The notes: a model not told the origin generated them from the letters alone. Positions 6,224 to 34,853 are shown, counted from the first letter of the stretch. The stretch: 64,000 nucleotides of DNA from an uncultured Gemmatimonadaceae bacterium (GCA_963817955.1 CAWFQK010000007.1:64001-128000); one strand, 5' to 3'. Translations and numbers: made by a program.

Positions 6224-7465
6224 TTATTTGAAGCTCGTGATGAGACTCTGGACGATCAGGGACCAGCCATCGACCAGAACGAACAGCAACAGCTTGAAGG
6301 GCAGCGAAATCATCGCCGGCGGGAGCATGAACATGCCCATGCTCATGAGGACCGACGACACGGCGACATCGATAATGATGAACGGCAGGAAGAGTGCAAA
6401 ACCGATCTGAAAAGCGGTGCGCAGTTCGCTGATGACGAAGGCGGAGGTGAGGGTCACCATCGGGACATCTCCGATCGACGCGGGCTGCATACCGGTGCTC
6501 ATGCGGACGAACGTCTCGATGTCCTCGCGGCGAGTCTGCTTGAGCATGAACGCGCGAAACGGCCGGCTGCCGAGGTCGAGCATTTGCGACTGGCTGATCT
6601 GTCCGTCCATCCATGGCGTGAGCGCCGTGCGATTCACTTCATTGAGCGTGGGCGCCATGACGAACCCGGTGAGGAGCAGGGCCAGCGCCGCAATCAGCTG
6701 ATTCGGTGGCGCGCTCTGGGTGCCGAGCGCCTGACGCAAGAAGTTGAGGACAATGAGTATCCTCGTGAACCCGGTCATCATCAGCAGCAGCGTCGGCAGG
6801 AGAGTCATGAGACCCATCGTCACGACGACGCCGACGGTGCCACTCAGATGCAGTCCGTCCCCGCCGCCGACCTTGAGGTCCATCTGCGGGGCGAGTGGCG
6901 CGGGACCGGCCGCGAGGGGCTTGGCCGCCGATCCTTTCAGGCCGGCCAGCTTCTCTACGAGATCTGCGGGGTTCTGTCCCGCCTTCACGCCGGACACCGC
7001 TTGCTTCGCAATCTCCGTCATCTGCGCGACCGACGGCGGACGCGCCGTCACGCGTTGTGCGTTCGCTCTCGTGGACGTGGCGAGCGCGAAGACGATCGCG
7101 AGGCCCGCCGTTCGCATCGCACCCTTGAATGCCGCCTTGAAGTCGAGCGGAGAATTGGGCCGCGGTCCGTCCATCGCCACTCGGTCCTTGACATCCGCCA
7201 CCAATTCGACCTCGCCCGGCTCCAGCTCGAACAACCGATTGATCCCGCCTTCCCCCACGGAAATGGCGACGAGCCGTTCGCCCACGCGAACGACGGCAAT
7301 GCCCTGCTTGGGGCCAAGCGCCAGCCGTTGCACAACCTCCATCTTGAGGCGTGCTCCCGCGGTGGAAGTGGGCGCGAATCGCCGCAGCAACTTCAGGGCA
7401 ATGCCGAGCAACGCCAGGACGAATCCCAGCGTCATCAGTACGCCCATGATCGAACCGAAGGTCAC
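6224..7465 (-). CDS. fliP: FliO-FliP fusion protein
   Basis: The N-terminal ~90 aa are FliO-like (TM helix, LALGPKQGIAVVRVG). The C-terminus is FliP (MMTGFTRILIVL, PPNQ, SELRTAFQIGF, MFMLPPAMISLPFKLLLFVLVDGW). One continuous ORF. Confidence 0.9.
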   Translation of the reverse strand: MTFGSIMGVLMTLGFVLALLGIALKLLRRFAPTSTAGARLKMEVVQRLALGPKQGIAVVRVGERLVAISVGEGGINRLFELEPGEVELVADVKDRVAMDGPRPNSPLDFKAAFKGAMRTAGLAIVFALATSTRANAQRVTARPPSVAQMTEIAKQAVSGVKAGQNPADLVEKLAGLKGSAAKPLAAGPAPLAPQMDLKVGGGDGLHLSGTVGVVVTMGLMTLLPTLLLMMTGFTRILIVLNFLRQALGTQSAPPNQLIAALALLLTGFVMAPTLNEVNRTALTPWMDGQISQSQMLDLGSRPFRAFMLKQTRREDIETFVRMSTGMQPASIGDVPMVTLTSAFVISELRTAFQIGFALFLPFIIIDVAVSSVLMSMGMFMLPPAMISLPFKLLLFVLVDGWSLIVQSLITSFK

Positions 7466-7818: not shown

Positions 7819-8855
7819 GAGTTGGTGTCCAGAGATGACGAAAGCGGGCCGCTGCTGAGCGGCTCGAGTACGCGAACGGCGAGTTTGCGTCCGACTCGTC
7901 CCGCGACGGTCCTGAAGCGCGGATGATTGCCGACCAGCAGATTGACGTTGGCGTCGATCGGTATGCCGGTGGACAGCATGCTGCCGACTGTGAGGCTGGC
8001 GATGTCCCGCATTGCGAGATGGAATTCCGGCAGACGCGCCGCCACTTCTACACGCGTGGCACGCAGCGCCACCTCGGTGTTCTCGCGCTGGCCGGGCAAT
8101 TCACGCCGCGGCAGTTGGGCCATGGTGGATCTGGAACTGCCCGTCACGAAGAACTTCTCGAGCACCGACAGCGGGAGGGCGATGGAGATCAGGCTTGTGG
8201 TGCTGCCGAAGGTCGCATCAATGTTCGCGACGAGTACCGGCGACTCGCGCGTCGCTGCCTGGATGATCTCGGGAATGGATTCGAACCCGGCGAGGGAGAT
8301 CTCGAGCTCGACATGATCCTCCCAGATCTCCTGCACCAGCCCCATTACGCGCTCGGCAACGACGCGAACGGCCATTCGCTCGATCGGCGTGAGCGCACGC
8401 TCGAGAATCGTCGCATCGGCGCCGCCGCCGCCAAACAGACGGTCGACGAGGAAGTAGGCGAGCTCGCGGCCGATGTCGATCACGGCCTGCTCGCCGACGG
8501 CGTCGTCGCCAGCGCGGTCCTTGAGGTCGAGAATGAAGGAGTTGCAACTCGCCGGTAGCGACAGCACGTACTCGCCGAATGATATCTGTTCCACGCTCAC
8601 CAGGCGCAGGCCGACGGCACCGCGGACGCGGCCCATGAGCCAGCCCTCGAGCGACTTCACCAGACGGCCGTACATCGCTTCCAGTACGTGCAACCGGTCC
8701 TTGGAGACACGGTGCGGGCGGGCGAAGTCGTAGATCTGGACGTCGGGCGCCGAGTGATGGATGACAGGACGCTTGGCCGTGTCGCCCAGCATCAGCCGGT
8801 CGATATCGTCTTGCGACAGCGTCTGCGAAGAATTCGGAATGCGGGGTGCGGTCAT
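7815..8855 (-). CDS. fliM: Flagellar motor switch protein FliM
   Basis: LSQDDIDRL CheY-binding peptide, YDFARP and a C-terminal SpoA domain. Confidence 0.92.
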   Translation of the reverse strand: MTAPRIPNSSQTLSQDDIDRLMLGDTAKRPVIHHSAPDVQIYDFARPHRVSKDRLHVLEAMYGRLVKSLEGWLMGRVRGAVGLRLVSVEQISFGEYVLSLPASCNSFILDLKDRAGDDAVGEQAVIDIGRELAYFLVDRLFGGGGADATILERALTPIERMAVRVVAERVMGLVQEIWEDHVELEISLAGFESIPEIIQAATRESPVLVANIDATFGSTTSLISIALPLSVLEKFFVTGSSRSTMAQLPRRELPGQRENTEVALRATRVEVAARLPEFHLAMRDIASLTVGSMLSTGIPIDANVNLLVGNHPRFRTVAGRVGRKLAVRVLEPLSSGPLSSSLDTNS

Positions 8856-9364
8856 TGGGTCACGAACTGCGGAAAGAAGACCTTGAGCACTGCCCCTTTC
8901 GGAAACAGCGGCCGCACGGCGTCCAGCACCTCACTCTTGATCGCCTCGCGCTCCATGATGTTCGTCAACTGGTCGACCGTCTTCTTTCCGAGGAGCGCGA
9001 GGATGTGGTCGCGCACCTCGGCCTCATGATCCTTCATCATCTGGTCGATGCTCGCATCCTTGAGCTCGAACGTCGCGGTGACCATGAGAAAGCGCGTACC
9101 GCCGCTTCCCGCGGGATTGAGCACGAGGTTCTCGATTGCGTGCGTCACAGACGACGACACTGGCGCGGTGGCAGAGTCAGGCGTCGGGACCACGGCGGCG
9201 GGTGTGGCGCGCTTCTTGGCGAGGAGGGGTCCGACGCCAAGCAGTCCTGTGGCCGCTCCGGCCGCGACGCCGATCACGCCAAGGATCAACACCCCACGCT
9301 TCCCTTTGGACGGGGGTGTGTCATCGACCGCTTCTGGAACTTGTTCGATGGCTTCGGTCGCCAT
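8852..9364 (-). CDS. fliL: Flagellar basal body-associated protein FliL
   Basis: Single TM helix, LVLNPAG...RFL and C-terminal VFFPQFVTQ; upstream of fliM. Confidence 0.9.
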   Translation of the reverse strand: MATEAIEQVPEAVDDTPPSKGKRGVLILGVIGVAAGAATGLLGVGPLLAKKRATPAAVVPTPDSATAPVSSSVTHAIENLVLNPAGSGGTRFLMVTATFELKDASIDQMMKDHEAEVRDHILALLGKKTVDQLTNIMEREAIKSEVLDAVRPLFPKGAVLKVFFPQFVTQ

Positions 9365-9680: not shown

Positions 9681-10994
9681 TTACTGCTTCAGATTCACCA
9701 GATCCTGTAGCATCTGGTCGCTCGCGGTGATCACCTTGCCATTCGCCTGGAAGCCGCGCTGGGCGACGATCATATCAGTGAACTCCTGCGCGAGATCGAC
9801 GTTCGACATCTCGAGGTTGCCGCTCGCGATGCTCGAGGTAGTGCCTTCACCAGAGTAGCCCAACACCGGCGAGCCGGAATTGGCGGACGTGTTGTACATA
9901 TCGTCGCCCGTGCGAACGAGGCCCGCCGGATTGTTGAAATCGGCGAGAACCAACTGGCCGAGCACCTGCGTCATACCGTTGGTGAATGAGCCGACTACCG
10001 CGCCGCTCGAGTCGATCGTGAAGTTCTGGAGATTACCACTGGCGTTACCATTCTGGCTGCGCATCACAGCGTTGTTCGAGCCGGCGAGTTGCGACAGGCC
10101 GCTCAAGCCGGTGCCGACGTCGAGCGTGATGTCGACGGCTGCGGCGCCGCTGTTCGGCGTGAACGTGATCTCCGGTGGAGTGAATCCGGTAGTATCCACT
10201 GAACCGTCGCTATTGAAGGTGATTGGGTGCGTGCCCTGCACCTCAGTGATGCCGGCCTTTGTGATATCCATGCCTGTCCCGTCGGCCTTCCAGTCCCACG
10301 TGTTCGTGCCGGTCTTCCAGATCACCAGCTTCACCTCCTGCTTGGCGCCGAGGGAATCGTAGGCCGTGATCGACAGGTCCTTGTAGGCATGCGCGTTCTG
10401 CGGAAGCGCGCGCTGGGTGGCATCGAGGGGATCGAGGGTCGTCGCCGTGCCCTTGTCGAACGGCGTTGCTGCCGCGTCGAGATCGCCGGTAAGCGAGATG
10501 GAGGTTGTCGCAACTGCCGCCGCCTGTTCTCCGACTGGAATGGTCACGTCCGTTATGGCATCCGAGAGCTTGCCGCCCACCGACATCCTTCCCTGCAGGG
10601 CAAATCCATTGCCGCCGGCGACCAGCGTGCCCTTCGAGTCGACCTGGAAGTTGCCGGCGCGTGTGTACAGGCTCTGCGAGCCCTGCCTCACAACGAAGAA
10701 CGAGGGGCCCTGGATCGCGAGATCAGTATTGTTGCCCGTCGATTCCAGATTTCCTTGCGTGAACAACGTGTCCACGCTGCCGATCTGTGAGCCGAGACCC
10801 ACCTGCATGGGGTTCAGGCCACCCGTGTCGGGGCGCGCTGCGCTTTCGATAATCTGGGCGTAGCCTTCCTTGAAAGTCACACGTCCGGACTTGAACGCGA
10901 CGGTGTTGACGTTCGCGATGTTGTTGCCGATGACGTCCATCCGGGTCTGCTGGTTGCGAAGACCCGAGACAGCGGCCGAAAGAGAGCGAAGCAT
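9681..10994 (-). CDS. flgE: Flagellar hook protein FlgE
   Basis: IGNNIANVNTVAFK at the N-terminus, YTRAGNF, LEMSNVDLAQEFTDMIVAQRGFQAN. Confidence 0.96.
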   Translation of the reverse strand: MLRSLSAAVSGLRNQQTRMDVIGNNIANVNTVAFKSGRVTFKEGYAQIIESAARPDTGGLNPMQVGLGSQIGSVDTLFTQGNLESTGNNTDLAIQGPSFFVVRQGSQSLYTRAGNFQVDSKGTLVAGGNGFALQGRMSVGGKLSDAITDVTIPVGEQAAAVATTSISLTGDLDAAATPFDKGTATTLDPLDATQRALPQNAHAYKDLSITAYDSLGAKQEVKLVIWKTGTNTWDWKADGTGMDITKAGITEVQGTHPITFNSDGSVDTTGFTPPEITFTPNSGAAAVDITLDVGTGLSGLSQLAGSNNAVMRSQNGNASGNLQNFTIDSSGAVVGSFTNGMTQVLGQLVLADFNNPAGLVRTGDDMYNTSANSGSPVLGYSGEGTTSSIASGNLEMSNVDLAQEFTDMIVAQRGFQANGKVITASDQMLQDLVNLKQ

Positions 10995-11067
10995 TGGTGC
11001 TCCTGGAAAGAGGAAGAGGCGAGCGAATAGCGAATAGGGAAATGCCGATGAGCCGTCGGCGCGCGGA

Positions 11068-11772
11068 TTAGTTCAGGATCTGGATGACGTTGGCGTACGG
11101 GATCACGAGACCGCCGGAGGTGAGGACAAGACCGTTTTGACTGGTGCTCACACCGTCGACGCGGCCGGTGACGTAGGTCTGCACGGTGACGGGCTGGCTG
11201 GAGCTGTCCTTGGCGTCCACCGAATACGTGTACATCCCGTCCGGCAGACCGGAGCTGGCGTCACCGAGGTCGATGCTCTGCTTGCCGGCCTGGAGGGCGC
11301 CCAGCGAGCGGGTACCGACTTCGACACCGGCGCTATCATAGATATGTAAAGTGGCGGAGCTGCTCGCCGCCGCGACGTCTACGGGCACGCTGGTGGAGCC
11401 TGACGTGCCGCCGACTTGAACCTGGTTGCCCATGGCGACCACGGTGTGGCCAATGGTGTTGATCGCCGCCGTTGACTGGATGGCGCCAAGCAGTGAGCCG
11501 GTCGAAGACTGCTGGTCGGTGAGCGTCGTATTGATTTGCTGGAGCTGCTCGAGGGACGAGAACTGGGCGAGCTCCGACGCCATCTGATCGCCTTGCATAG
11601 GATTGAGTGGATCCTGATTCTTCAGCTGTGCCACCAGCATCTGGAGAAATTGATCCTTGCCGAGGGCACCCCCTGCCGCAGCAGCCTCAGTGCCCGCCGC
11701 GGCTACGGTCGGCGTAGTCGTCGCGGCTGTGGTCGCGAAAGTAGCCGGTCTGTACGTCGGTGCGATGATCAT
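11068..11772 (-). CDS. flgD: Hook capping protein FlgD
   Basis: LGKDQFLQMLVAQLKNQDPLNP...LAQFSSLEQ. Start at the ATGA overlap with the upstream gene. Confidence 0.95.
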   Translation of the reverse strand: MIIAPTYRPATFATTAATTTPTVAAAGTEAAAAGGALGKDQFLQMLVAQLKNQDPLNPMQGDQMASELAQFSSLEQLQQINTTLTDQQSSTGSLLGAIQSTAAINTIGHTVVAMGNQVQVGGTSGSTSVPVDVAAASSSATLHIYDSAGVEVGTRSLGALQAGKQSIDLGDASSGLPDGMYTYSVDAKDSSSQPVTVQTYVTGRVDGVSTSQNGLVLTSGGLVIPYANVIQILN

Positions 11773-13469
11773 TGCTGTGAACCTCTGCGCTGGTCGCGCT
11801 GTTGTTGGCGGCGCTCGCTCTGTGACTGCTGGCGCTCGCGCGGTTCCCACTCGCCGCCGCGCGGCGAACGGCCGTTCGTTGATGCATCTGACGTGCTCTT
11901 TCCAGTTGGCGCGCCGGCGCCGGCGACCGCCGAGGCGCCGCCGCGTACCTGCAGCGACTCCAACTCGGCGCCGTCGCGGGTGAGGGCGCGCACGAGTTCG
12001 TCGCTATGCCCGCTCATCGCCTGTGCGCCCCGTGCGTCCCCCGCGTCGATTGCCGCGCTCACCGTCGAGCCGTGGAGCGTAACGCGTACGCGATCCGTGA
12101 TCCCGGCTCCGGCGTCCACGGCCAGCGTGATCTGTGACAGGGGTCGCACCGGCGCCTGATCGAGCGCTTCGAGCACGCGCGCCGTGCGATCGGCACTCGA
12201 CGGCCCGGAGACGGATGACACGCCATTGGCGCTCCGCGGTGATGCCGGTTGGTCGCGAAGCGCGAACGCCGAATCGAGTGCGCCGTATGCAGCGCGCTGA
12301 TCGATCGTTCCCTGCTGCGGCGCATGACCATTGTTCCGTGCATTCTTATTGGATCCACCGCCGAACGACTGCATGTTGCTCTGTCCCGCCGTTGCCGGCT
12401 GTGACGAAGGCGTTCCGCTGTTCACCGGGGCAACCGGTGCGGTGAATTGCTGCGGTGCTTTGGCTCCTGCTCCGTCACGCGGCGTCCAGGGAATGTTCAC
12501 GACCTGCGCAGGCGTTCCGGTGCCAAGATCTGCGACCTGCACGGATGCTCCTGTGCCGAGATCTGCGAATTGCTTGGGCGCTCTGGTGCCGAGCGTTGCG
12601 AATTGCTTGGGCGCTCCGGTGCCGGGAGCTGCGATCTGCGCGACTGGCGCCACATGCGCGACTTGCGCGATCTGCGCGATAGGAGACAACGGAACGAGTC
12701 CCGGGCGCGTCGCATCAGCCGGCGCGGCGGGGAATGCCTTCATCGAGCTGTTCGCAACGGCACCGGCTCCAATTCCTGGGAGCTCGACGTGGCCCGGATC
12801 GCGCGCACCAAGCGTGCGTAATCCTTCTTCGTTTGCGATACGCTGTAGCGCTGCGTAGGCAGACAGCGGCGCGTTGCCTGAGTCGAGCACGAGATCTGCC
12901 GCGCGTCCCTGCGTGTGCTTTGAGTTCTGCGTCCACGTAACGACTGGACCCGCAGTCTCGCGACCTTGCGCAAATAGCGAGTTTTGCCGGGTCTGGCTGC
13001 GAAATGTCTCGCTGATCGTCGCGTCGTGACCTGTCTCATTGCGGACACGGGAGATGACACGCGCCAACTTCGTCTGCAATGCCGGATCGAGCGCGCTAAC
13101 GGAGCGCACCACGTTAGCACTCGCAGCCGCACTCGCAGCCGCACTCGCAGCCGCACTCGCAGCCGCACTTACGGTCGCGATCGCCGCAGCGGGGAAGGAG
13201 GCAGTTGATCCAGGTTGCCCAGCAGCGGCGTTTGCGTCACCATCGCCGGCCGATCCGCCCTCTTCGCCAGGAGCATCCTTCCCCGTCGTCTGGTCGAGAT
13301 CGGACGTTCCATCGGGCTTCGGCGTGGGACGTAGTGCCGGTGCGTGCGCCTGCGCGGCGGCGAGCATCCCAGCGAACTCCGGCGCGCGTTCGGCATCGTG
13401 TCGTGCGTCGAATGCGCGTGTGTCGTCGGCTGTCGTGATCGGCGAGAACGCTGCGAGGGCAATGGTCAC
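11769..13469 (-). CDS. FliK-like hook-length control protein with internal M15 (VanY/CwlK-like) zinc peptidase domain
   Basis: Canonical fliK position upstream of flgD, low-complexity A/P/Q linker, and a Flg_hook-like C-terminus (RVRVTLHGSTVSAAI...LVRALTRDGAELESLQV). Internal motifs TFRSQTRQ..LFAQGR, SKHTQGRAAD and DPGHVEL. Confidence 0.75.
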   Translation of the reverse strand: MTIALAAFSPITTADDTRAFDARHDAERAPEFAGMLAAAQAHAPALRPTPKPDGTSDLDQTTGKDAPGEEGGSAGDGDANAAAGQPGSTASFPAAAIATVSAAASAAASAAASAAASANVVRSVSALDPALQTKLARVISRVRNETGHDATISETFRSQTRQNSLFAQGRETAGPVVTWTQNSKHTQGRAADLVLDSGNAPLSAYAALQRIANEEGLRTLGARDPGHVELPGIGAGAVANSSMKAFPAAPADATRPGLVPLSPIAQIAQVAHVAPVAQIAAPGTGAPKQFATLGTRAPKQFADLGTGASVQVADLGTGTPAQVVNIPWTPRDGAGAKAPQQFTAPVAPVNSGTPSSQPATAGQSNMQSFGGGSNKNARNNGHAPQQGTIDQRAAYGALDSAFALRDQPASPRSANGVSSVSGPSSADRTARVLEALDQAPVRPLSQITLAVDAGAGITDRVRVTLHGSTVSAAIDAGDARGAQAMSGHSDELVRALTRDGAELESLQVRGGASAVAGAGAPTGKSTSDASTNGRSPRGGEWEPRERQQSQSERRQQQRDQRRGSQQ

Positions 13470-14089
13470 TGCTTCCGTCCTTGCAAGGCGAGCTTGCTCA
13501 AAGTGGCGACTCGTTCAGGTGGCAGCGCGGCCAGAATCGACGCTGCCTGACGCGTACCGACATAGCCGAGAATGATTTGGACGTCGCCGTCGGCCATATG
13601 CTCGAGCACCTTGGCAGCCTGCTTCGCATCCATGGATGTGAACACCTTGGCGACGCGGCGTTGCGAGGCCTCGGTCGCCGTATCGAGTGGTGCTTTCACA
13701 GCCGATTTTTTCGGCGCCGATACAGTCGGCTCCGCCAAAGTCGGCGTCGCTGTCTTTGTCGGTGCCGGTTCGGGTGCCAGCGCCGGTGCTGGTGTCGGTG
13801 CCAGCGCCGGTGCTGGTGTAGTCGCCGCTGGTGACGGAACCGCGCTGGCGAGTTGCTTCGCCGAATCGACAACCGCTACCGGCGCGCGCGCCGTGTCGAC
13901 TGGGGGCGCGGCTGCGGGCTGTCCCGACGCGACGACGGCTGTGTCGGCATGCGTCGAGTCCGCGGCATTCGCCGAGGAACCCGCCTCTGGCGGTGGGGTC
14001 ACCGGTGGCTTGGTCAGTAGTACTTTCGCGCCGGTGGACCCCGCCAATGCGACGGCGAACGTCAGTGCGAACACGACGACGGGTTTCAT
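13466..14089 (-). CDS. MotE/FlbB-like flagellar protein (MgtE N-terminal-like domain)
   Basis: N-terminal signal/TM, Pro/Ala-rich linker, C-terminal VAKVFTSMDAKQAAKVLEHM...AASILAALPPE; follows fliJ. Confidence 0.75.
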   Translation of the reverse strand: MKPVVVFALTFAVALAGSTGAKVLLTKPPVTPPPEAGSSANAADSTHADTAVVASGQPAAAPPVDTARAPVAVVDSAKQLASAVPSPAATTPAPALAPTPAPALAPEPAPTKTATPTLAEPTVSAPKKSAVKAPLDTATEASQRRVAKVFTSMDAKQAAKVLEHMADGDVQIILGYVGTRQAASILAALPPERVATLSKLALQGRKQ

Positions 14090-14547
14090 GCCGTTGCTGT
14101 CCCCGGATCGTCTTCACGACGCGTGAAGCGCGTCAGGGCCAGCTCGTCCATCTGCCGCATCTCTTGCGCGTTGTCCTCCACGCGCCAGGTGGCGAAATGG
14201 CGATCGCGCAATCGGCTCAGCACGCGGCGCGCCTGCAGCGCCGAGGTGAGGTCGGTGCGGGCTTGCGCCACGAGCTGCTCGGCCATTTCGACGCGCGACT
14301 GTGCGTCCACGATGTGATGGTTGAGTTGCTCGATGACGTAGCCAATGGTCTTGAGCTGACCGATGGTCGGCTCGTGCGCGGTGCGCAGCGCGGCGGAGCC
14401 GCTTTGGCGAATCGTCTCCAGGGCCTTCTGCGCCAGGCGTGCTTCATTCGCCGCAGTCTCCGCGTCGGCTAGCTTGGCGGCGACTTGCTTCTCATGCTGC
14501 TCGCGCAGCTCCAGCACCTGCTGAAGACGGAACTTGAACGCGCTCAT
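14086..14547 (-). CDS. fliJ: Flagellar export chaperone FliJ
   Basis: FKFRLQQVLELRE...QEMRQMDELA; follows fliI. Confidence 0.92.
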   Translation of the reverse strand: MSAFKFRLQQVLELREQHEKQVAAKLADAETAANEARLAQKALETIRQSGSAALRTAHEPTIGQLKTIGYVIEQLNHHIVDAQSRVEMAEQLVAQARTDLTSALQARRVLSRLRDRHFATWRVEDNAQEMRQMDELALTRFTRREDDPGTATA

Positions 14548-15878
14548 GGCGACCTCCTCGTCGTTTGGTCGATCTGCTGTGCGAGCGAGACGAGCGCACG
14601 TCTCGACGCGTCGTAATCGGAATTCTCTTCCGGCGTCTGTTGCAGGAAGTCCAGCATTTGCGGACGCAGGCGGAGCGCAGCATCCACGCTGCGGTCGCTG
14701 CCTTGGTTATATGCGCCCACGAGAATGAGATCCTCTTTCTCGCGATACGCAGCTTCGAGTCGTGCGACGGCGTTCGCCGCCCCGCGATGGTCTGGCGAGA
14801 TGACGTGATCCCGTACGCGGCTCTTGCTCTCCAGAATGTCGATTGACGGATAGTGTCCGGCGCCGGCCAGCTTGCGCGTGAGGACGATGTGTCCGTCGAG
14901 AATCGAGCGACTGGCGTCGGCGATCGGTTCGTTGAAATCGTCACCGTCCACCAGCACGGTGTAGACGCCGGTGATACTGCCGGTGCTGGCGCTTCCCGCG
15001 CGTTCGAGCAGGCGCGGAAGCGCCGCGAAGACCGACGGTGGATAGCCCTTTGTCGTCGGTGGCTCTCCGACGGCCAGGCCAATCTCACGCCACGCCATTG
15101 CGACGCGGGTCACGGAGTCCACCATCAGGAGTACTTCCTTCCCTTGATTACGGAAGTACTCGGCGATCGACGTGGCGACGAGCGCACCGCGAGCGCGCAC
15201 GAGCGCGGCTTGATCGCCTGTAGCGACGACGACGACGGAGCGTGCCAGCCCTTCGGCGCCCAGAGAGTTCTCGATGAAATCGCGCACTTCGCGGCCGCGC
15301 TCGCCGAGCAGCGCGATGACATTGACGTCGGCCTTCGCACGACGCGCAATCATACCGAGCAGCGTACTCTTGCCGACGCCCGAACCGGCGAAGATGCCGA
15401 TACGCTGTCCCTTTCCGAGTGTCAGAAATCCGTCAATCGCGCGAACGCCGGTCTCCAGCGGCTGGCTGATGATCTGGCGCTCGAGCGGGTGGGGCGGCTC
15501 GGCGGAGAGGGGCATACGCTGCGCGTGATCGACGCGTCCCTTGCTGTCGATCGGATGACCGAGGCCGTTCAGCACGCGGCCGAGCAGTCCGGGCCCAACG
15601 TCCGCCCCAAAGCTGCGGCCCATGGGGGTGACACTGCTGCCCGGATGCAGGCCGTCGATGTCGCCGAGCGGCATGAGCAGCACACCGCGTTCGTGAAAGC
15701 CGACGACTTCCGCGAGCACGGATTTCTCTTCGGACAGGCTGGTCACACGGCACAGCTCACCGAGACCGACGTCGAGCCCGGCCGCCTCGATGACGAGGCC
15801 GACGACGCGCGTGACGCGTCCCATGCGGTAGATCCTTGGCAGGTCGCCGATGCGCGACGCGAGACGATTACGAAGCAT
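14544..15878 (-). CDS. fliI: Flagellar export ATPase FliI
   Basis: GQRIGIFAGSGVGKST, GERGREV, GEPPTTKGYPPS. Start trimmed to ATG 15878. Confidence 0.96.
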   Translation of the reverse strand: MLRNRLASRIGDLPRIYRMGRVTRVVGLVIEAAGLDVGLGELCRVTSLSEEKSVLAEVVGFHERGVLLMPLGDIDGLHPGSSVTPMGRSFGADVGPGLLGRVLNGLGHPIDSKGRVDHAQRMPLSAEPPHPLERQIISQPLETGVRAIDGFLTLGKGQRIGIFAGSGVGKSTLLGMIARRAKADVNVIALLGERGREVRDFIENSLGAEGLARSVVVVATGDQAALVRARGALVATSIAEYFRNQGKEVLLMVDSVTRVAMAWREIGLAVGEPPTTKGYPPSVFAALPRLLERAGSASTGSITGVYTVLVDGDDFNEPIADASRSILDGHIVLTRKLAGAGHYPSIDILESKSRVRDHVISPDHRGAANAVARLEAAYREKEDLILVGAYNQGSDRSVDAALRLRPQMLDFLQQTPEENSDYDASRRALVSLAQQIDQTTRRSP

Positions 15879-16551
15879 CGATCTGCGCCATTCGGTGATA
15901 GGCGCGTTCGAGCGCCGTGTCCACACGGCCGTCCACGATGCGATCGCGTCCTTCGACGAGACAGCCACCGCGCGCCACGCGCGCGTCGGCAAGCCAACTC
16001 ACGTCGCGTGCGCCCGTGATCGGAGCCATTCCGCCTTCGTTCAGCGTGAGCAGCGATAGGTCGAGCGGGTGGACGCGGATGCGGGTGCTCTGATCGACCG
16101 GAAACTCGGTCAGTGCGCGGCGAACGAGATCCGCGACGAGCTCGCGCGCCACGCTCACCTCGCGCGCGACGATCTGGCGCGCCACGATGACGGCGAGCGC
16201 AGCGATATTCTCTTCGAGAATCGACGGCGCGAGGGCCGCCACGTCGCGGACCTCGCCCGTGATCTTGTCGATGACGGCGAGCGCTTTGGTGACGCGAGCC
16301 TGCGCGGCAGCGAGACCCTTCTTCTCGCCGTCGGCAAGTCCGCGTGCGTACGCCTCATCGATCATTTGCGCGCGTTCCTGGGCCGAGGGTCCGGCGTTCA
16401 TCGCGCTGGCCGGCGCGCCGGCCAGCGATGCCTCGATCGGAAGCGCGGCCACGGCAAGCTCGTCGAGCGCCCACACGCCGGCGGGCGCCGCGCCGTCGAC
16501 CGGCGTGGCGCGCACCGACGCGAGGCCGATGGCTCTATGCGACGATGTCAT
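15868..16551 (-). CDS. fliH: Flagellar assembly protein FliH
   Basis: AxxxGxxxG repeats, IRVHPLDL, GGCLVE; between fliG and fliI. Confidence 0.88.
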   Translation of the reverse strand: MTSSHRAIGLASVRATPVDGAAPAGVWALDELAVAALPIEASLAGAPASAMNAGPSAQERAQMIDEAYARGLADGEKKGLAAAQARVTKALAVIDKITGEVRDVAALAPSILEENIAALAVIVARQIVAREVSVARELVADLVRRALTEFPVDQSTRIRVHPLDLSLLTLNEGGMAPITGARDVSWLADARVARGGCLVEGRDRIVDGRVDTALERAYHRMAQIDAS

Positions 16552-28205: not shown

Positions 28206-29983
28206 ATGCGTATCAACACCAACGTCAGTGCTCTCACCGCACTCGGCAACCTGAACAAGGTTCAGGACAACGTCGCCAGTTCGATGCAGAAGCTCTCCTC
28301 GGGCTTCCGTATCAACAAGGCGGGTGACGACGCGGCCGGTCTCGGCATTTCGAACCAGATGGGCGCCGACATCAAGGCAATGACGCAGGCCTCGCGTAAC
28401 GCGGAGCAGGCGGGGTCGGTGCTCCAGATCATGGACGGCGCCACGTCAAACATCCAGACGATTCTCGAGCGCATGAAGGAATTGGCTGCGCAGTCGGCCT
28501 CGGACACGGTCGATGCCCCGGCACGCACGAAGATCAACAGCGAGTTCAGTTCGCTGAGCAGCGAGCTCGATCGTATCTCGGCCACCACGAAGTTCCAGGG
28601 CGCATCGTTACTCGACGGCACCTTCGGCAGCAAGACGACCAACCTCGGCACGGTGAAGTCGACTTCGACCTTGTTGACCTCCGCCAATATGACGACGCCG
28701 ACCGTTACGAGCGGAACTACCTTCGCCGGGATCACGGGCGACGTCACTGCATCGGTTGTCTTCAAGGACAATGCGCTTGACGCTTCATTCAAGACTTCGG
28801 ACGACTCCACGGTCACGCTCACGGCTGCCGATCAGACAAAAATCGACAAGATCGATGCCTCCGCTCCCATCAGCCTCGGGGTTGTGCAGGGCGACGCCAC
28901 TGCCACCGCAGATGCGACTGGCGAATCAAGTTCGTCGGACGCGATCCTGGGCGATGTCACCGTGTTGGACCAGTCCCTCACAAAGGCACTCAAGGCCGGA
29001 GCCTGGACCATCAGCACTGCCGCCAATGTCTGATGGTAGTCACCAAGGACATCACATTCACCAACGGCTCTGACACATTGACGGCGACAGGCGTTGCTGA
29101 TGACGCGTCCGCAATCCAGACCGATGGCGGCGAATTCAGCATCGCGCTCAGCGGAACAGTCAAGCAGGCTGATCTGGCGAACCTGGATGGCGCGACCGTC
29201 AACCTCACCCAGAACTACACGATCAGCGCTACCGGCGGCGGCGTGTCTGGCGGTGACTCCGCAGGCTATCGTCGATGACGGTTCGACGCCAACGACTGTC
29301 GACTTCAGCGGTACCTACGGCTTCTCGTTCACGTAGACGCCGGCACCGCGAGCACCTTCGACGGCCAAGGGATCGGCGTGACCAAGGAGAGCGTGCTCAA
29401 GCTCACGGCCGGCTCGACGAGCCAGACGAGTACGACCGTCCTCAGTAATGATGGGGCGAGCCAGACCTGGCCTTCTCGACGTTCGGGCCTTCCATCACGA
29501 CCGGTGATAGTGCGACCGCCGCAAATCTCACGACGGACTTCGCTGCCAACAAGAATGTCATCAAAGCACGACACCGCTCAGAGCGCACAGTTCCTGGTGA
29601 GCTCCTCGCAGAGCTACACACAGAACGATTTGATCAGCATCGACGCGATCAATCTCACCGTCGCGAAGCTGGGTTTGAGCAATGTCGACCTGACCACGGC
29701 GGCGGGCGCGCAGACCGCTCTCTCGACGATCGACAGCGCGATCAACGATGTTGGCACGGCGCTCGGATCCATCGGTGCGGCTGAAAACCGGGTGACGTAC
29801 GCGGACACGAACGTCAAGACGACGATCCAGAACCTCACGGCGGCGCAGTCGGCCATCAAGGACGTCGATATGGCGCAGGAGATGACGACCTTCTCCAAGA
29901 ACCAGATTCTGTCGCAGGCTAGCACCGCGATGCTGGCGCAGGCGAACCAGCTCGGCCAGAGTGTCCTCAAGCTGCTCCAGTAA
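28206..29983 (+). pseudogene. fliC: Flagellin 1, frameshifted (pseudogene or local sequence error)
   Basis: Intact flagellin N- and C-termini. Pieces homologous to flagellin 2 switch frame near 29030, 29261, 29331, 29468 and 29566. Confidence 0.8.
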
Positions 29984-30201: not shown

Positions 30202-32004
30202 ATGCGTATCAACACGAACGTCAGCGCCCTCACCGCACTCGGCAACCTGAACAAGGTTCAGGACAACGTCGCCAGTTCGATGCAGAAGCTCTCCTCGGGC
30301 TTCCGTATCAACAAGGCGGGTGACGACGCTGCCGGTCTCGGCATTTCGAACCAGATGGGTGCCGACATCAAGGCAATGACACAGGCCTCGCGTAACGCGG
30401 AGCAGGCGGGTTCGGTGCTCCAGATCATGGACGGCGCGACCTCGAACATCCAGACGATTCTCGAGCGCATGAAGGAATTGGCTGCGCAGTCGGCCTCGGA
30501 CACGGTCGATGCCCCGGCACGCACGAAGATCAACAGCGAGTTCAGCTCGCTGAGCAGCGAGCTCGATCGCATCTCGGCCACGACGAAGTTCCAGGGGGCC
30601 TCGCTGCTCGACGGCACCTTCGGCAGCAAGACGACCAACCTGGGCACTGTCGATGCCGACTCCACGCTGACAGCGGCGCCGAGCACCACACACGTGGCGT
30701 CCGCGGTGGCCGTATCCGATGCGGACAAATCGAAGTTCGCGGGGATCGCGGGCGACATCACGGCGACGGTTGTCAAGAAGGACAACACGCTTGGGACCCT
30801 GACCAACGGCGACGGCGACCCGATCGACGTTCCTTTGGTGACCTCCAGCGATTTGAGCGCCAAGATCAACTCGCTCGATGCGTCCAAAGCCATCGGTCTC
30901 ACGGTCGTCTGGGACGGTTACACCGGCACCACGGATGCCGGCACATCAACGCCGGGGGGTGCCACACTGGGCTCCGTCTCGGTAGGCTCGGATGGCCTCG
31001 CACCTGTCGGCAAATGGTCCGTCTCGGACGTTAAAGACAACGCGGATGATAATTCAAAGTCGGACATAACATTCTTCGACGGCAACATAAGCTATTGGAC
31101 GGTTACGGGCGTAGCTGACAACGCCACGTCTATCACCCTCGACACTACCTCCACCGTAATCTCCCTCGACGGCACATTCGCCAACCACGCCGATGTAAAG
31201 AGTCTCATTGGCGCGAACCTCGACGTCGCCCGGAACTACACCATCAGTGCTTCCGGCGGCGGTGTGGACGGTGGTGCCTCCCAGGCTATCGTCGAAGACG
31301 GCACCACGGATTCAACGAATGTTGACTTCACCGGTAGCTACGGCTTCTCGTTCGACGTGGCTACCGGCACCGCGTTCGCCGTCGACGGTGCGAGCGTCGG
31401 ATTAAAGGAGAATGATCAACTCGTGCTCACCGCGGGGACCGACACCGCGTCGGCAGACATCTCCAATACGGCAGCCGGGGCGCAGAATTTCGATTTCACG
31501 AACAAATTCGGCCTGACCATAACGTCCACGCCGGACGTCACAGGTGCCGACCTCAAGACGGGCATCGGGGACGGAAAGACCATCACTCACGACACCAGCA
31601 AGCAGGCACAGTTCCTGGTGAGCTCCTCGCAGAGCTACGCACAGAACGATTTGATCAGCATCGACGCGATCAATCTCACCGTCGCGAAGCTGGGTTTGAG
31701 CAATGTCGACCTGACCACGGCGGCGGGCGCGCAGACCGCTCTCTCGACGATCGACAGCGCGATCAACGATGTTGGCACGGCGCTCGGATCCATCGGTGCG
31801 GCTGAAAACCGGGTGACGTACGCGGACACGAACGTCAAGACGACGATCCAGAACCTCACGGCGGCGCAGTCGGCCATCAAGGACGTCGATATGGCGCAGG
31901 AGATGACGACCTTCTCCAAGAACCAGATTCTGTCGCAGGCTAGCACCGCGATGCTGGCGCAGGCGAACCAGCTCGGCCAGAGTGTCCTCAAGCTGCTCCA
32001 GTAA
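30202..32004 (+). CDS. fliC: Flagellin 2 (600 aa, intact)
   Basis: MRINTNVSAL...LSSGFRINKAGDDAAGL at the N-terminus; IKDVDMAQEM...AQANQLGQSVLKLLQ at the C-terminus. Confidence 0.97.
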   Translation: MRINTNVSALTALGNLNKVQDNVASSMQKLSSGFRINKAGDDAAGLGISNQMGADIKAMTQASRNAEQAGSVLQIMDGATSNIQTILERMKELAAQSASDTVDAPARTKINSEFSSLSSELDRISATTKFQGASLLDGTFGSKTTNLGTVDADSTLTAAPSTTHVASAVAVSDADKSKFAGIAGDITATVVKKDNTLGTLTNGDGDPIDVPLVTSSDLSAKINSLDASKAIGLTVVWDGYTGTTDAGTSTPGGATLGSVSVGSDGLAPVGKWSVSDVKDNADDNSKSDITFFDGNISYWTVTGVADNATSITLDTTSTVISLDGTFANHADVKSLIGANLDVARNYTISASGGGVDGGASQAIVEDGTTDSTNVDFTGSYGFSFDVATGTAFAVDGASVGLKENDQLVLTAGTDTASADISNTAAGAQNFDFTNKFGLTITSTPDVTGADLKTGIGDGKTITHDTSKQAQFLVSSSQSYAQNDLISIDAINLTVAKLGLSNVDLTTAAGAQTALSTIDSAINDVGTALGSIGAAENRVTYADTNVKTTIQNLTAAQSAIKDVDMAQEMTTFSKNQILSQASTAMLAQANQLGQSVLKLLQ

Positions 32005-32123: not shown

Positions 32124-34853
32124 ATGACAGCTCCGATCACCAGCATTCAGGGCCTGAGCAGCGGCATCAAGTGGCAGGACCTGGTCGACCAGCTCATTGC
32201 AGTCGACACGACGCAGCAGTTGACACCGGTCACCGATCAGTCGACCGCGAAGACGGCGACCATGAAAGCATGGTCGTCGTATGGTACGGCGGTGTCCACA
32301 GTGCTCACGACCGTCAAAGGACTGGCCGACGGCACTGCGTTCGGCGCGGTCGGCGTCACGGCGCCCAACAGCTCCATGACGAGTCGAACGTTGCTCACCG
32401 CGACGGCGACCGCGACCGCCACACCCGGTTCATATGGCGTGCAGGTCCTCAGTACCGCTGCCGCGCAGAAGCTCAGCGGAAACGTCGTATCCGACGCCAC
32501 CGCGGCGGTTGGTGTCAGCGGACAGTTCATCGTTGGCGGCCAGCTCGTCACGATTGCCAATGGAGACTCGCTCAATGGCATCCGCGACAAGATCAACGCA
32601 CTGAACGCCGGCACCACGGCAACACATGTGTCGGCCTCGGTTCTTCAATTGGGTGGATCGTCATCGCGTCTCGTGCTGACGAGCGACACGGGTGGCGCCT
32701 CCGGCATCGATCTGCGTGACGTGCGCGCCTCGTCCGGGGCTCCGACCTTGCTCACGCAACTCGGCTTCATTGATGGGCACACGACGAACGTCGGGAGCGA
32801 TGGGGCGGCGCGAAGCGCTGCGTTCGTCAGCTCGACAACAACCGTGGCGCTCCAAACACCCGGAGCGGTCGCCTATCCTGCCGCCACGACCATCAACGTC
32901 AACGGGAGCGCGGTTTCCGTCGACGTGCAGCATCAGAGTCTCGCCGACATCGCCGCCAGCATCAACGCGGCGCAGCCGAATACCGCGGTGGTCGAGACAG
33001 TAACCAATGGCGGCACGACGACGTATAACCTGAAGATTTCCGGCGCCGTTTCCGCGACGTCAGATACGGCGTCCCAACCCACGCTCGACCTGCTCGGCCT
33101 TTCGCGCGGCACCACGGGAGTGGTCAAGCAGCAGCTCGCGACGTCGAACGTGCTCCAGGACGGCACGGGAAGCACGGCCACTGGGTCGACGACGCTCCTC
33201 GGCCTCCAAGTGGCCGGGGGTGTGGGCGCGCAGATTGGCGATACGTTTACGTTCGCTGGTACCAAGGCGGACGGTGTCACGCCGGTGTCGCTCACGGAGA
33301 CAGTTGACGGGTCAAAGACGATCGCCAACATGCTCACCGACCTGACTGCGGCCTTCAGCTCCACCGACCGCCACGTGACCGCAGCGCTCGTGGGAGGAAA
33401 GATCCAACTGACCGACGATGCGGGCGGCGATTCCGGCCTCTCGTTTTCTGCGTCGGCCAACAACGAAAGCGGCGTGGCCGACCCGGTACTCGGTGCGAAT
33501 GTGAGTTTCGGCAGCGTCACCACGACCGCCATCGGTCGCCAGCGCGAGCTCGTGCAGGGAAACGACGCGCGCATCCTGGTGAACGGCATTTCTGTGACGC
33601 GGTCGAGTAACACCATCACCGACGCGATTGCTGGCGTTACGCTCAATCTGCAGCAGGCCGAGGTGGGCACGACGATCCCTGTGACCGTGTCGAGTGACAC
33701 CAGCGGGGCGGTGTCAGCCATCCAGAACTTTGCGTCCGCCTACAACGCGCTGCAAACCTTCGTCTCATCGTCCATCGCCCCCGGTGGCGCGTTGGCCTTC
33801 GATACGGGCGTGCGTTCGACCTTCGACACGATCAAGAACACCCTGCTCAGCGGCGTCACGGGTCTTCCCGCCGGAAGTGCGTACGACAACGCGGCCTTGG
33901 TCGGCGTCTCCCTCGACAAGACCGGCCAACTCCAGGTCGATGCCACAGTGCTCGGCGCGGCCTTGGCGAACAGCCCGAATGCAGTGAAGTCGCTGTTCCA
34001 GACGAACGGCGTCGTAGCCGCCGCCAACTTCAGCTACCTGGGCTCGAGCGACAAGACCGCCGCCGGCTCGTACGATATCAATATCACGCGCGCGGCCACG
34101 ACCGGCTCGGTCGTCAGCACCGCCGCCAGTTTCGTCTACGCCGACGGCGGCACGCCAGATACGTTGACGATCGGCGACTCGACGTCCGGGAAGTCCGGAT
34201 CGGTCACGCTTGCGAGCGGCGATACACCCGACAGCGTCGCCACGAAGTTGAACACGCTGTTTCAGGCCCAGGGCATCCGGTTGAGCGCGTCGAACGTCGC
34301 CGGCCATCTCACGGTAAACGGGCTTGACTACGGGAGTACACCCTCATTCACGATCGGGTACACGTCGACGGACGGGACGAACGTTGCCGGGCAGCTTGGC
34401 ATTTCCGCTGGAACCGTGCGCAATGGATCGGATGTGCAAGGCACGTTCTCGAGTGGCGCCACGACCTATGCCGCGACCGGCAAGGGGCAGCTTCTCACAG
34501 GCGGGATCGGCCTGCCGGTTGAAGGGCTCATCGCGAGCTACACAGGTTCCGCCGATGTTGCGACGAGCCACATGGACTTCGCCGTCGGGATTGCCGGGCT
34601 CGCGGCCAGGGTCGCGAACCAAGTCACTGCGTCGGATGGAACCGTTGCGACGGAAACAGCGGCGCTCCAGTCGAGCATTGCCGACCTCACGACTCGCGCA
34701 ACCAGTGTCCAGGCGCGGCTCGACCAGACAAAGACGGCGCTCCTCGCACAGTTCACGGCAATGGAGACCGCACTGGCACAGATCCAGGCACAAGGGACCT
34801 GGCTCACGCAACAGATCAATGTGATGAACGGTGTTAACTCCACAGGCGGTTGA
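32124..34853 (+). CDS. fliD: Flagellar filament cap protein FliD (large, 909 aa)
   Basis: GLSSGIKWQDLVDQLI at the N-terminus, SNTITDAIAGVTLNL, C-terminal LLAQFTAMETALAQI. Confidence 0.93.
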   Translation: MTAPITSIQGLSSGIKWQDLVDQLIAVDTTQQLTPVTDQSTAKTATMKAWSSYGTAVSTVLTTVKGLADGTAFGAVGVTAPNSSMTSRTLLTATATATATPGSYGVQVLSTAAAQKLSGNVVSDATAAVGVSGQFIVGGQLVTIANGDSLNGIRDKINALNAGTTATHVSASVLQLGGSSSRLVLTSDTGGASGIDLRDVRASSGAPTLLTQLGFIDGHTTNVGSDGAARSAAFVSSTTTVALQTPGAVAYPAATTINVNGSAVSVDVQHQSLADIAASINAAQPNTAVVETVTNGGTTTYNLKISGAVSATSDTASQPTLDLLGLSRGTTGVVKQQLATSNVLQDGTGSTATGSTTLLGLQVAGGVGAQIGDTFTFAGTKADGVTPVSLTETVDGSKTIANMLTDLTAAFSSTDRHVTAALVGGKIQLTDDAGGDSGLSFSASANNESGVADPVLGANVSFGSVTTTAIGRQRELVQGNDARILVNGISVTRSSNTITDAIAGVTLNLQQAEVGTTIPVTVSSDTSGAVSAIQNFASAYNALQTFVSSSIAPGGALAFDTGVRSTFDTIKNTLLSGVTGLPAGSAYDNAALVGVSLDKTGQLQVDATVLGAALANSPNAVKSLFQTNGVVAAANFSYLGSSDKTAAGSYDINITRAATTGSVVSTAASFVYADGGTPDTLTIGDSTSGKSGSVTLASGDTPDSVATKLNTLFQAQGIRLSASNVAGHLTVNGLDYGSTPSFTIGYTSTDGTNVAGQLGISAGTVRNGSDVQGTFSSGATTYAATGKGQLLTGGIGLPVEGLIASYTGSADVATSHMDFAVGIAGLAARVANQVTASDGTVATETAALQSSIADLTTRATSVQARLDQTKTALLAQFTAMETALAQIQAQGTWLTQQINVMNGVNSTGG

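Follow-up and report, generated by a model that had tools for sequence, protein, structure and literature searches.

Views on how the flagellar rod gets through peptidoglycan are being actively revised, as in a 2026 study of FlgJ from Salmonella (PMC13584718), and for the many bacteria whose FlgJ has a single domain, most of the enzymes involved are not known. In one described arrangement, the rod cap FlgJ carries the lytic module itself; in one class of FlgJ, the C-terminal domain is a peptidase (stated in the Discussion of PMC13584718, which cites Nambu 2006). In another, a single-domain FlgJ works with a separate enzyme, such as SltF, PleA, or BB0259 (according to passages in PMC13584718 and PMC8517470). 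Here we describe a protein of an uncultured Gemmatimonadaceae bacterium in which the flagellar hook-length ruler, FliK, contains a peptidase domain of the M15 family. It is encoded in a 64,000-nucleotide stretch of DNA (GCA_963817955.1, CAWFQK010000007.1:64001-128000), which we will call the window. An earlier note on the window had proposed that this gene encodes a FliK-like ruler fused to an intact M15 peptidase, and that the protein opens peptidoglycan at the site of flagellar assembly by cutting stem peptides. We now think that the first proposal is almost certainly correct, and we cautiously favor the second.

Both parts of such a protein have precedents. TagX, from the T6SS (type VI secretion system) of Acinetobacter, is a Ply500/CwlK-like LAS peptidase that cleaves the L-Ala-D-Glu bond and is essential for T6SS function or biogenesis; its authors proposed that it lets the machine cross peptidoglycan (as described in parts of PMC5061870). 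The view in the earlier note that wall penetration is normally the work of FlgJ or SltF glycan hydrolases is incomplete: those enzymes exist, but there are peptidases too, namely the FlgJ peptidase class and TagX. As for FliK, the Salmonella protein is secreted continuously during rod and hook assembly. Beta-lactamase fusions to flagellar type III substrates are exported to the periplasm, where the beta-lactamase folds into an active enzyme. With FliK-beta-lactamase, mutants blocked late in assembly had low ampicillin resistance that was similar to the wild type's, which is likely due to limited secretion while the rod is at an early stage of assembly, before the outer membrane is penetrated (these three points are from sections of PMC13344023).

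In a listing of open reading frames (ORFs) in the window, the fusion is a single frame that starts with GTG and encodes 566 amino acids (aa). It lies on the minus strand in the order fliJ, MgtE_N/MotE-like gene, fliK-M15 fusion, flgD, flgE. Its start overlaps the stop codon of the MgtE_N/MotE-like gene by 4 nt (GTGA), and its stop codon overlaps the ATG of flgD by 4 nt (ATGA, 11772-11769). This agrees with the earlier description of a gene in the fliK slot that is coupled to flgD.

The fusion has many relatives. Using the protein as the query, we found 253 homologs, many of which are labelled as Gemmatimonadaceae. Their public annotations are "M15 family metallopeptidase", "YcbK/DUF882", or "hypothetical". 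We examined 91 related loci (11 from a survey of the phylum, described below, and the 80 best named contigs), which encode 86 distinct M15 sequences. The titles of the 80 contigs name Gemmatimonadota, Gemmatimonadales, Gemmatimonadaceae, Gemmatimonas, or simply "bacterium". All 91 loci have the M15 domain; at 84 of them, the FliK C-terminal domain lies downstream in the same open frame, and the other 7 are interrupted by the end of the contig. An exhaustive profile search of 1.84 billion representatives gave 457 clusters with E <= 1e-30. Among the best 150 of these, the M15 domain is followed by the FliK C-terminal domain in 136, and both zinc-site motifs are present in 144. The other 14 stop 6-235 residues past the M15 module (10 of them within 115 residues), probably in most cases through truncation. 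A separate search for shorter proteins gave 14 hits, with at least two of them labelled partial and with contigs that are, where a length is given, mostly 1-3 kb. These hits look like fragments of the fusion family, and no clear case of a stand-alone M15 source was found among them. (All of the best 150 belong to the family, so the nearest outgroups lie out of view.)

We considered whether the fusion might be an artefact of assembly or gene calling that joins two genes. The sole reason to do so was composition: the GC content at third codon positions (GC3) is 0.68 for fliK, versus 0.77-0.83 for most of the neighboring flagellar genes. The window's ORF has neither an internal stop nor a frameshift, and this explanation, to which we give virtually no credence, is refuted by the single frame at 84 of 91 independent loci and by the shared architecture of 136 of the best 150 representatives. 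Within fliK, GC3 is 0.65 for the M15 block, 0.53 for residues 67-117, and 0.83 for the part encoding the FliK C-terminal domain. The value for the M15 block cannot be interpreted as a sign of horizontal acquisition, as equally low values occur in fliK's low-complexity parts and in the MotE-like gene (0.68). Low-complexity composition or weaker codon selection may explain the low GC3 of both genes.

The M15 motifs that the earlier note had read in a block at about 13110-12778 are present in the translation: FRSQTRQNSLFAQGR at residues 156-170, NSKHTQGRAAD at 182-192 (H185-x6-D192), and DPGHVEL at 224-230. They map to about 12783-13004. We assigned the roles of H185 and D192 by alignment to Ply500, and the remaining roles by motif. 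Given what is known of M15 enzymes, D224 is presumably the general base and H227 presumably the third zinc ligand. (A figure legend about Ply500 and TagX in PMC5061870 also bears on the roles of the zinc-site residues.)

Pfam's VanY model gives a faint match to the window's protein by itself (E = 0.014, residues 128-196, 15.6 bits, below the curated cut-off of 25 bits), and the single-sequence match to Ply500 is weak as well (E = 2.4e-4). The fold is much clearer. In an AlphaFold2 model that was built with alignment A1 (38 homologs that are 32-50% identical overall), the region from about 120 to 235 has pLDDT above 90. When the model of the M15 domain was compared to the PDB with Foldseek, all eight matches with E <= 0.001 were M15 enzymes, with a probability of 1.00 each. 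Ply500 was the top match (5.6e-6), followed by LysECD7, LdcB, LysB4, ChiX, and the RB49 enzyme, and then by VanY-type enzymes, VanX, and the T5 enzyme. A profile of the M15 domain alone (A2, 41 sequences) matched Ply500 (1.8e-11), LysB4 (3e-11), LysECD7 (5e-3), and the RB49 enzyme (6e-3) in the PDB; these are the only four matches with E <= 0.01, and all are L-alanyl-D-glutamate peptidases. The LD- and DD-carboxypeptidases (LdcB, VanY) have the common fold and come just below in the Foldseek ranking. The domain is nearest to the L-Ala-D-Glu endopeptidases Ply500 and LysB4, which bears out the kinship that the earlier note had suggested. Judging from these nearest relatives only, it would cleave the L-Ala-D-Glu bond.

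The M15 domain is the most constrained part of the protein. Within A1, the mean pairwise identity is 0.69 for the M15 domain, as compared to 0.32 for the N-terminus, 0.17 for residues 67-117, 0.35 for the linker, 0.55 for the FliK C-terminal domain, and 0.45 for the tail. R157, Q159, R161, Q162, Q168, G169, R170, S183, H185, D192, D224, H227, and E229 are invariant in A1. Across the 91 loci, R157, R161, Q162, R170, S183, D192, D224, and H227 are always kept, while H185, E229, and Q168 are kept at 90. The catalytic residues are therefore conserved in the orthologs (90-91 of 91 loci), a point on which the earlier note had staked its proposal. We think that the domain is probably an active peptidoglycan peptidase.

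The C-terminal part is harder to recognize from a single sequence. Pfam's Flg_hook model matches residues 461-511 of the window's protein with E = 0.0042 and 17.3 bits, below the cut-off of 29.8 bits. At E <= 0.01, Flg_hook also matches 31 of the 38 members of A1 and 36 of 43 cluster representatives (a sample from the 136 two-domain representatives); 8 of the 43 are above the curated cut-off. In a dedicated model of residues 412-566, the switch-domain part has pLDDT of 85-94. The two top Foldseek matches of this model are PscP-SS (5cuk, E = 8e-3) and FliK-C from Salmonella (2rrl, E = 8e-2); these E-values are weak. VIA-align gives Z = 6.9 for PscP-SS (root-mean-square deviation 3.2 over 68 residues) and Z = 6.8 for FliK-C (2.9 over 67 residues), with a modest margin to the next match (Z = 5.8). 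A sequence-only search of the PDB with the C-terminal profile of the family (A3) found no ruler protein, and its best match was a de novo protein (E = 0.014), so the link to FliK comes from the fold and from profile-profile comparison.

That comparison relies on the flagellated relatives that lack the fusion. In 13 such genomes, the slot upstream of flgD holds one long ORF each. A MotE-like gene lies ahead of the slot ORF in 11 of the 13, and a fliJ-sized gene lies before that in 10 of these 11. Flg_hook matches 11 of the 13 slot ORFs, with E-values from 1.8e-20 to 1.2e-3, and none of the 13 has a match to a Pfam model of the M15 family. One of these plain FliKs directly matches FliK-C from Salmonella (2rrl, E = 4.6e-4). 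We aligned the C-termini of the fusion proteins (A3) to those of 11 of the 13 plain slot proteins (A5, which leaves out G089 and G140) with hhalign. The two profiles match over 74 columns with a probability of 98.3% and E = 1.4e-14, which bears out the FliK-like C-terminus that the earlier note had claimed. In the kind of check that the note had suggested, Foldseek for the M15 domain, the family profiles, and hhalign all support the two domains; the single protein stays below the Pfam cut-offs.

The window's genome, which is 94% complete, has no other credible Flg_hook match, and hence no separate canonical fliK, whose presence would have refuted the earlier proposal. (Two faint matches were rejected as second FliKs: one with E = 0.63 sits in a DEAD/Lhr helicase, and one with E = 0.35 is in a protein that bears a signal peptide and has no FliK-C signal.) Given the slot, the homologous C-terminus, and the lack of any other Flg_hook match, this gene is the organism's FliK, and we are highly confident that it encodes a FliK with an intact M15 domain. 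By homology, we would expect this protein to have the usual functions of FliK: to be exported, to set the length of the hook, and to switch the specificity of FlhB.

The layout of the 566-aa protein is summarized in the table. Besides the M15 domain, the AlphaFold2 model has disorder at 238-420 (pLDDT below 50), a confident alpha/beta domain at 425-510, and then a terminal helix. In the N-terminal region, F32, A33, S56, and D59 are almost invariant in A1. By analogy with FliK from Salmonella, residues 1-66 are presumed to be the type III export signal; by inspection, we saw neither a Sec-type signal at the N-terminus nor a hydrophobic anchor in the protein. The linker is presumed to be the ruler segment. 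Its length varies from 107 to 304 residues across relatives, with a median of 138. In the basic tail, R553 is invariant and RRQQQR is conserved in A1. The gene also contains two tandem repeats that are in frame. A 33-bp unit is repeated 3.8 times in the linker (12511-12634) and encodes an 11-residue repeat, and a perfect 12-bp unit (Ala/Ser) is repeated 4.4 times just ahead of the M15 domain (13117-13169). Slippage at such repeats could alter the length of the ruler.

Table. Features of the fusion gene, its neighbors, and the FlgJ-SLT genes of family f10. Positions are in the window unless a locus is named.
Feature	Position	Strand	Basis
fliK-M15 fusion gene	11769..13469 (stop codon 11769-11771)	(-)	ORF, fliK slot, 253 homologs, domain model
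N-terminal region, residues 1-66, with FAGMLA and GTSELD motifs	13272..13469	(-)	Family conservation in A1
M15/LAS zinc-peptidase domain, residues 118-236	12762..13118	(-)	pLDDT >90, Foldseek, PDB profile matches
R157-S-Q-T-R161-Q162...Q168-G-R170, substrate-site motif	12960..13001	(-)	Aligned to YRSTAEQNALYAQGR of Ply500
S183-x-H185-x2-G188-x-A190-x-D192, first two zinc ligands	12894..12923	(-)	Aligned with SNH...AVD segment of Ply500
D224-P-G-H227-V-E229, presumed general base Asp and third zinc ligand His	12783..12800	(-)	Motif
Disordered linker, residues 237-419 (~180 residues)	12213..12761	(-)	pLDDT <50
FliK C-terminal (T3S4, substrate-specificity switch) domain, residues 420-515	11925..12212	(-)	Flg_hook, hhalign, fold
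Basic Gln/Arg-rich tail, residues 516-566, predicted helix 544-563	11772..11924	(-)	AlphaFold2 model
flgD (hook cap), likely ATG at 11772	11068..11772	(-)	FlgD, FlgD_ig, FlgD_tudor domains
MgtE_N-domain (MotE/YlxF-like) gene	13466..14089	(-)	MgtE_N E=8e-6
fliJ	14086..14547	(-)	FliJ E=2e-11; TIGR02473 E=2.9e-18
flgE (hook)	9681..10994	(-)	Domain match
fliL	8852-9364	(-)	Domain match
fliI	14544-15992	(-)	Domain match
Verified f10 FlgJ-SLT	L118:884-1762	(-)	Pfam
Verified f10 FlgJ-SLT	L119:1235-2122	(+)	Pfam
Verified f10 FlgJ-SLT	L120:1235-2128	(+)	Pfam

We then asked which other wall enzymes the organism has. The FlgJ of the window's genome has 110 aa and consists of the rod-binding domain only; it is the genome's sole match to Rod-binding (C7:59661-59810). 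We found no FlgJ-type glucosaminidase domain in this genome. There are 7 genes with SLT domains, all on contigs other than the flagellar contig, and a scan of ORFs at 1-42784 of the window showed no further wall enzyme. A complex prediction for the M15 domain (A2) with the short FlgJ (A4) scored 0.00, which counts neither for nor against an interaction. The fusion protein has no match to the Rod-binding domain (PF10135). It may act like the hydrolase domain of FlgJ, yet it is not a FlgJ.

To describe the distribution of the fusion, we used 201 genomes of Gemmatimonadota, including the window's own. Of these, 55 contain flgD, and the identical 55 carry the Rod-binding domain of FlgJ. A FlgJ-type glucosaminidase domain is present in just one of the 201, on a contig apart from that genome's flagellar cluster. 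The flagellated genomes have three layouts. In layout A, an M15-FliK is combined with a short FlgJ (18/55). These are the genome of the window, 15 of 17 further genomes from its family (f1) that contain flgD, one genome from f4, and one from f7; in the 17 genomes besides the window's, FlgJ has 101-133 aa.

In layout B, a FlgJ with an SLT domain is combined with a plain FliK (13/55). These are all of the genomes from family f10, which belongs to a different class. In each of the 13, the Rod-binding match is immediately followed, on the same strand, by the best SLT match, and three were verified as single proteins of 292-297 aa with both domains (E of about 1e-30). The FlgJ of f10 has an SLT lytic transglycosylase domain, not a glucosaminidase domain of the enterobacterial type. 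FliK was long and plain in the four f10 genomes that we examined. (A Polysacc_deac_2 module in the long FliKs of f10 was rejected: there was one faint match that was not reproduced, NCBIfam gave nothing, and the PDB gave only FliK-C.) In one f10 genome, G032, the Rod-binding and SLT parts are in open frames of different length (212 and 190 aa), and the gene may be split or frameshifted.

In layout C, there is neither a lytic FlgJ nor a working M15-FliK (24/55). These comprise 22 genomes from f2, a sister family in the same order, along with G089 and G140 from f1. None of the 22 flgD-positive f2 genomes has a match to the fusion protein with E <= 1e-5. The 7 slot ORFs that we examined from f2 encode plain FliKs. 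Two FlgJ genes from f2 were found to be short, and one of these was confirmed with Pfam as rod-binding only (examples of the f2 loci are L025-L031, L121, and L122). In five layout C genomes, three of which are from f2, there is no SLT gene near the flagellar genes. No genome in the sample has both a lytic FlgJ and a lytic FliK.

The only other sampled genome from the window's genus, G131, encodes a stand-alone relative of the M15 domain in a 300-aa open frame (C1:338229-338495; 40% identity over residues 108-204, E = 2.8e-6). G131 has no flgD and no Rod-binding match to FlgJ, and it is apparently not flagellated. Apparently, flagella are patchy even inside this one genus.

G140 is informative about what selection acts on. 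Its FliK (L037:431-2152, minus strand) is intact, with 573 aa, and matches the M15 profile with E = 1.8e-8 over profile positions 9-83 only. The zinc-binding His and Asp and several of the substrate-site residues have been replaced. The family profile finds no trace of M15 in the other 12 plain FliKs. The relic in G140 implies that the M15 module was present in the ancestor of that lineage and that the catalytic residues erode once selection lapses. The G140 protein resembles a naturally occurring intermediate stage in the loss of a domain, and its decay strengthens the case that selection for catalysis keeps these residues elsewhere.

This bears on whether the M15 fold might be mechanical rather than catalytic. 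A non-cutting domain could be a globular N-terminal "ball" whose folding upon exit prevents FliK from sliding back, or it could bind peptidoglycan and so time secretion. It is located where FliK rulers have their N-terminal part, it would be the first folded element out of the channel, and it is constant while the lengths of FliK and of the linker vary widely. But we consider such a role quite unlikely. The three zinc ligands, the general-base Asp, and the Arg, Gln, and Ser residues of the substrate site are retained almost perfectly across 86 distinct sequences, and these are exactly the residues that are lost in the decaying lineage. Also, plain FliKs within this phylum do without a domain of this kind.

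If the M15 domain is a peptidase, how would it reach peptidoglycan? No Sec-type signal was seen in it by inspection, and its only plausible route is the flagellar type III apparatus. By analogy with the FliK-beta-lactamase of Salmonella, we predict that the fusion protein, which resembles a naturally occurring version of that reporter, is likewise exported to the periplasm. We propose that FliK, lacking a Sec-type signal, would be among the early substrates for flagellar type III export and would pass N-terminus first through the growing rod at a stage when the rod has not yet left the periplasm. The M15 module would be the first part to emerge at the rod tip, where it would fold and bind zinc. 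It would presumably be tethered briefly by the disordered linker of about 110-300 residues, with the remainder of the chain not yet out of the channel, and it would cut stem peptides locally and open the peptidoglycan mesh for the rod. The C-terminal domain would afterwards switch the specificity of FlhB in the usual way. The lytic module of this clade would be carried by FliK instead of by the rod cap, FlgJ, of which only the rod-binding domain is left here. On balance, we slightly favor the view that M15-FliK opens the wall for the cell's own flagellum. We suggest more tentatively, as a possibility that may well be wrong, that FliK is the sole dedicated flagellar peptidoglycan hydrolase, with cutting confined to a few nm at the rod tip and timed with the molecule that measures the hook.

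Several observations weigh against wall opening. The peptidase activity, the export, and the role in rod passage rest on inference from sequence, a structural model, and analogy, and the single window protein is below the curated Pfam cut-offs for both VanY and Flg_hook. A dedicated enzyme is dispensable or replaceable in close relatives: 24 of the 55 genomes with flgD have layout C, and since these have flagella, the M15 module is not indispensable in the clade. The exclusivity of FlgJ-SLT and M15-FliK is suggestive rather than statistical, as it involves few clades. In Salmonella, the hydrolase activity of FlgJ enhances the assembly of flagella but is not required for it (according to parts of PMC13584718). 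Finally, FliK would be released outside the cell after the outer membrane is penetrated, so only a minority of the molecules would meet the cell's own peptidoglycan.

Some of these points would also fit an active M15 enzyme whose target is not the cell's own wall: flagellar export might be used to secrete a bacteriolytic or peptidoglycan-scavenging enzyme. The domain's nearest relatives with solved structures are phage endolysins of the kind that lyses cells from outside. Its catalytic residues are conserved, inspection of the N-terminus shows no Sec signal, some flagellated relatives cope without the module, and FliK is mostly released outside once the hook grows. This explanation is unlikely, in our view. 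As is established for FliK, few molecules are exported per flagellum, which would make for a poor weapon. In the sampled genomes, the module is found only with a single-domain FlgJ and never with FlgJ-SLT; and it is always inside a ruler, with no clear stand-alone form among the 14 hits of the search for shorter proteins.

Alternatively, the enzyme might remodel peptidoglycan for another flagellar need, such as the seating of the P-ring, the anchoring of the stator protein MotB, or turnover around the basal body. The evidence for delivery to the periplasm (from parts of PMC13344023) suits this idea as well as it suits wall opening, and rod passage may not strictly need an enzyme (per PMC13584718, in part). 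Nothing specific speaks against it, and sequence data cannot separate it from wall opening. But the complementarity with FlgJ-SLT points to a job like that of FlgJ, and we consider these other needs improbable as the explanation. Opening of the wall for the rod remains our preferred account.

The fusion gene belongs to a single long flagellar operon on the minus strand. The operon includes the rod genes, fliE, fliF, fliG, fliH, fliI, and fliJ through to fliM and fliN, as well as a fused fliO/P, fliQ, fliR, flhB, flhA, and a sigma factor. We take this order to be that of the Bacillus-type fla/che operon. The apparent fliO-fliP fusion is a single 413-aa ORF (6224-7465, minus strand) with FliO at residues 26-117 and FliP at residues 217-408. 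Elsewhere in the window, on the plus strand, an ORF at 28206-29033 has Flagellin_N only, and the adjacent ORF at 29378-29983 has Flagellin_C only. This pair may represent a flagellin gene that is split or frameshifted, or else a gene whose long middle part is unrecognized. It adjoins a complete 600-aa flagellin (30202-32004) and an unusually long FliD (909 aa, 32124-34853). A search of sequencing runs for 11000-14100 of the window listed no RNA run, and three DNA rows with small shares, all from one study.

If our account is correct, then M15-FliK would be the first type III ruler in nature that carries a catalytic passenger. It would add a third evolutionary route by which flagella get through the wall, alongside lytic FlgJ and the recruitment of free lytic enzymes. 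Evolution could then relocate the lytic module, taking it off the rod cap and placing it on the ruler, which is also exported early. A type III ruler evidently tolerates a folded enzymatic domain in its measuring half, which bears on models of how rulers measure length. One phylum offers three natural configurations for comparison (lytic FlgJ, lytic FliK, and neither), along with one decaying intermediate. In public annotation, the flagellar role of this family is invisible.

How does M15-FliK compare to known proteins? The M15 domain shares its fold, the S-x-H-x6-D and D-x-x-H zinc site, and the (Y/F)RSxxxQxxL(Y/F)AQGR motif with the L-alanoyl-D-glutamate peptidases (M15C) such as Ply500, LysB4, CwlK, and the T5 and RB49 enzymes, which are its best matches by both sequence and structure. 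However, these are just ~24-26% identical to the window's domain, and they are stand-alone proteins or endolysins with wall-binding domains; none of them is part of a secretion-system component. The rest of the protein resembles canonical FliK (Salmonella, 2rrl) and PscP in the position of the gene, the disordered N-terminal and linker regions, the alpha/beta T3S4 domain, and the presence of a sole copy. The FliK-beta-lactamase made in the laboratory demonstrates that FliK is able to bring an enzyme to the periplasm (described in part of PMC13344023). In the main texts of the open papers that we searched, we found no description of a natural ruler with a catalytic passenger or of a FliK-peptidase fusion.

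The single-domain FlgJ of these bacteria invites comparison with SltF (Rhodobacter), PleA (Caulobacter), and BB0259, or LTaseBb (Borrelia), which are exported by Sec and act either free or bound to FlgJ. In all of these systems, FlgJ has one domain and the lytic activity comes from another polypeptide (as reported in sections of PMC8517470 and PMC13584718). But SltF, PleA, and BB0259 are lytic transglycosylases, whereas here the enzyme would be a peptidase, with no Sec signal, inside FliK.

FlgJ proteins with hydrolase or peptidase domains are similar in that a lytic module is fused to an early flagellar type III substrate and so is, or in our case would be, delivered through the nascent rod. 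The peptidase class of FlgJ, which is of the M23 type, is a precedent for cutting peptides instead of glycans in flagella. The differences are that the carrier here is the ruler FliK and not the rod cap, that the fusion protein has no Rod-binding domain, that the lytic module is in the N-terminal half instead of at the C-terminus, and that the enzyme belongs to M15 rather than M23.

TagX resembles M15-FliK as a Ply500/CwlK-like LAS peptidase that serves an envelope machine which crosses the cell's own peptidoglycan, and the secretion of Hcp requires TagX (stated in part of PMC5061870). In the same account, TagX is encoded in a T6SS cluster, is anchored in the inner membrane, and is not secreted, while the M15 module is a passenger in a type III ruler that is encoded in a flagellar operon. 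The fusion is only a functional analogue of TagX. The earlier note knew of no description of such a mechanism. This holds for the fusion itself in the literature that we searched, but not for the type of mechanism, for which TagX is a precedent. M15-FliK is of a known kind and not a categorically new mechanism: it would combine a lytic module on a flagellar export substrate with an L-Ala-D-Glu endopeptidase that is dedicated to a machine. Given the precedent of TagX, what is new is the carrier, the ruler FliK.

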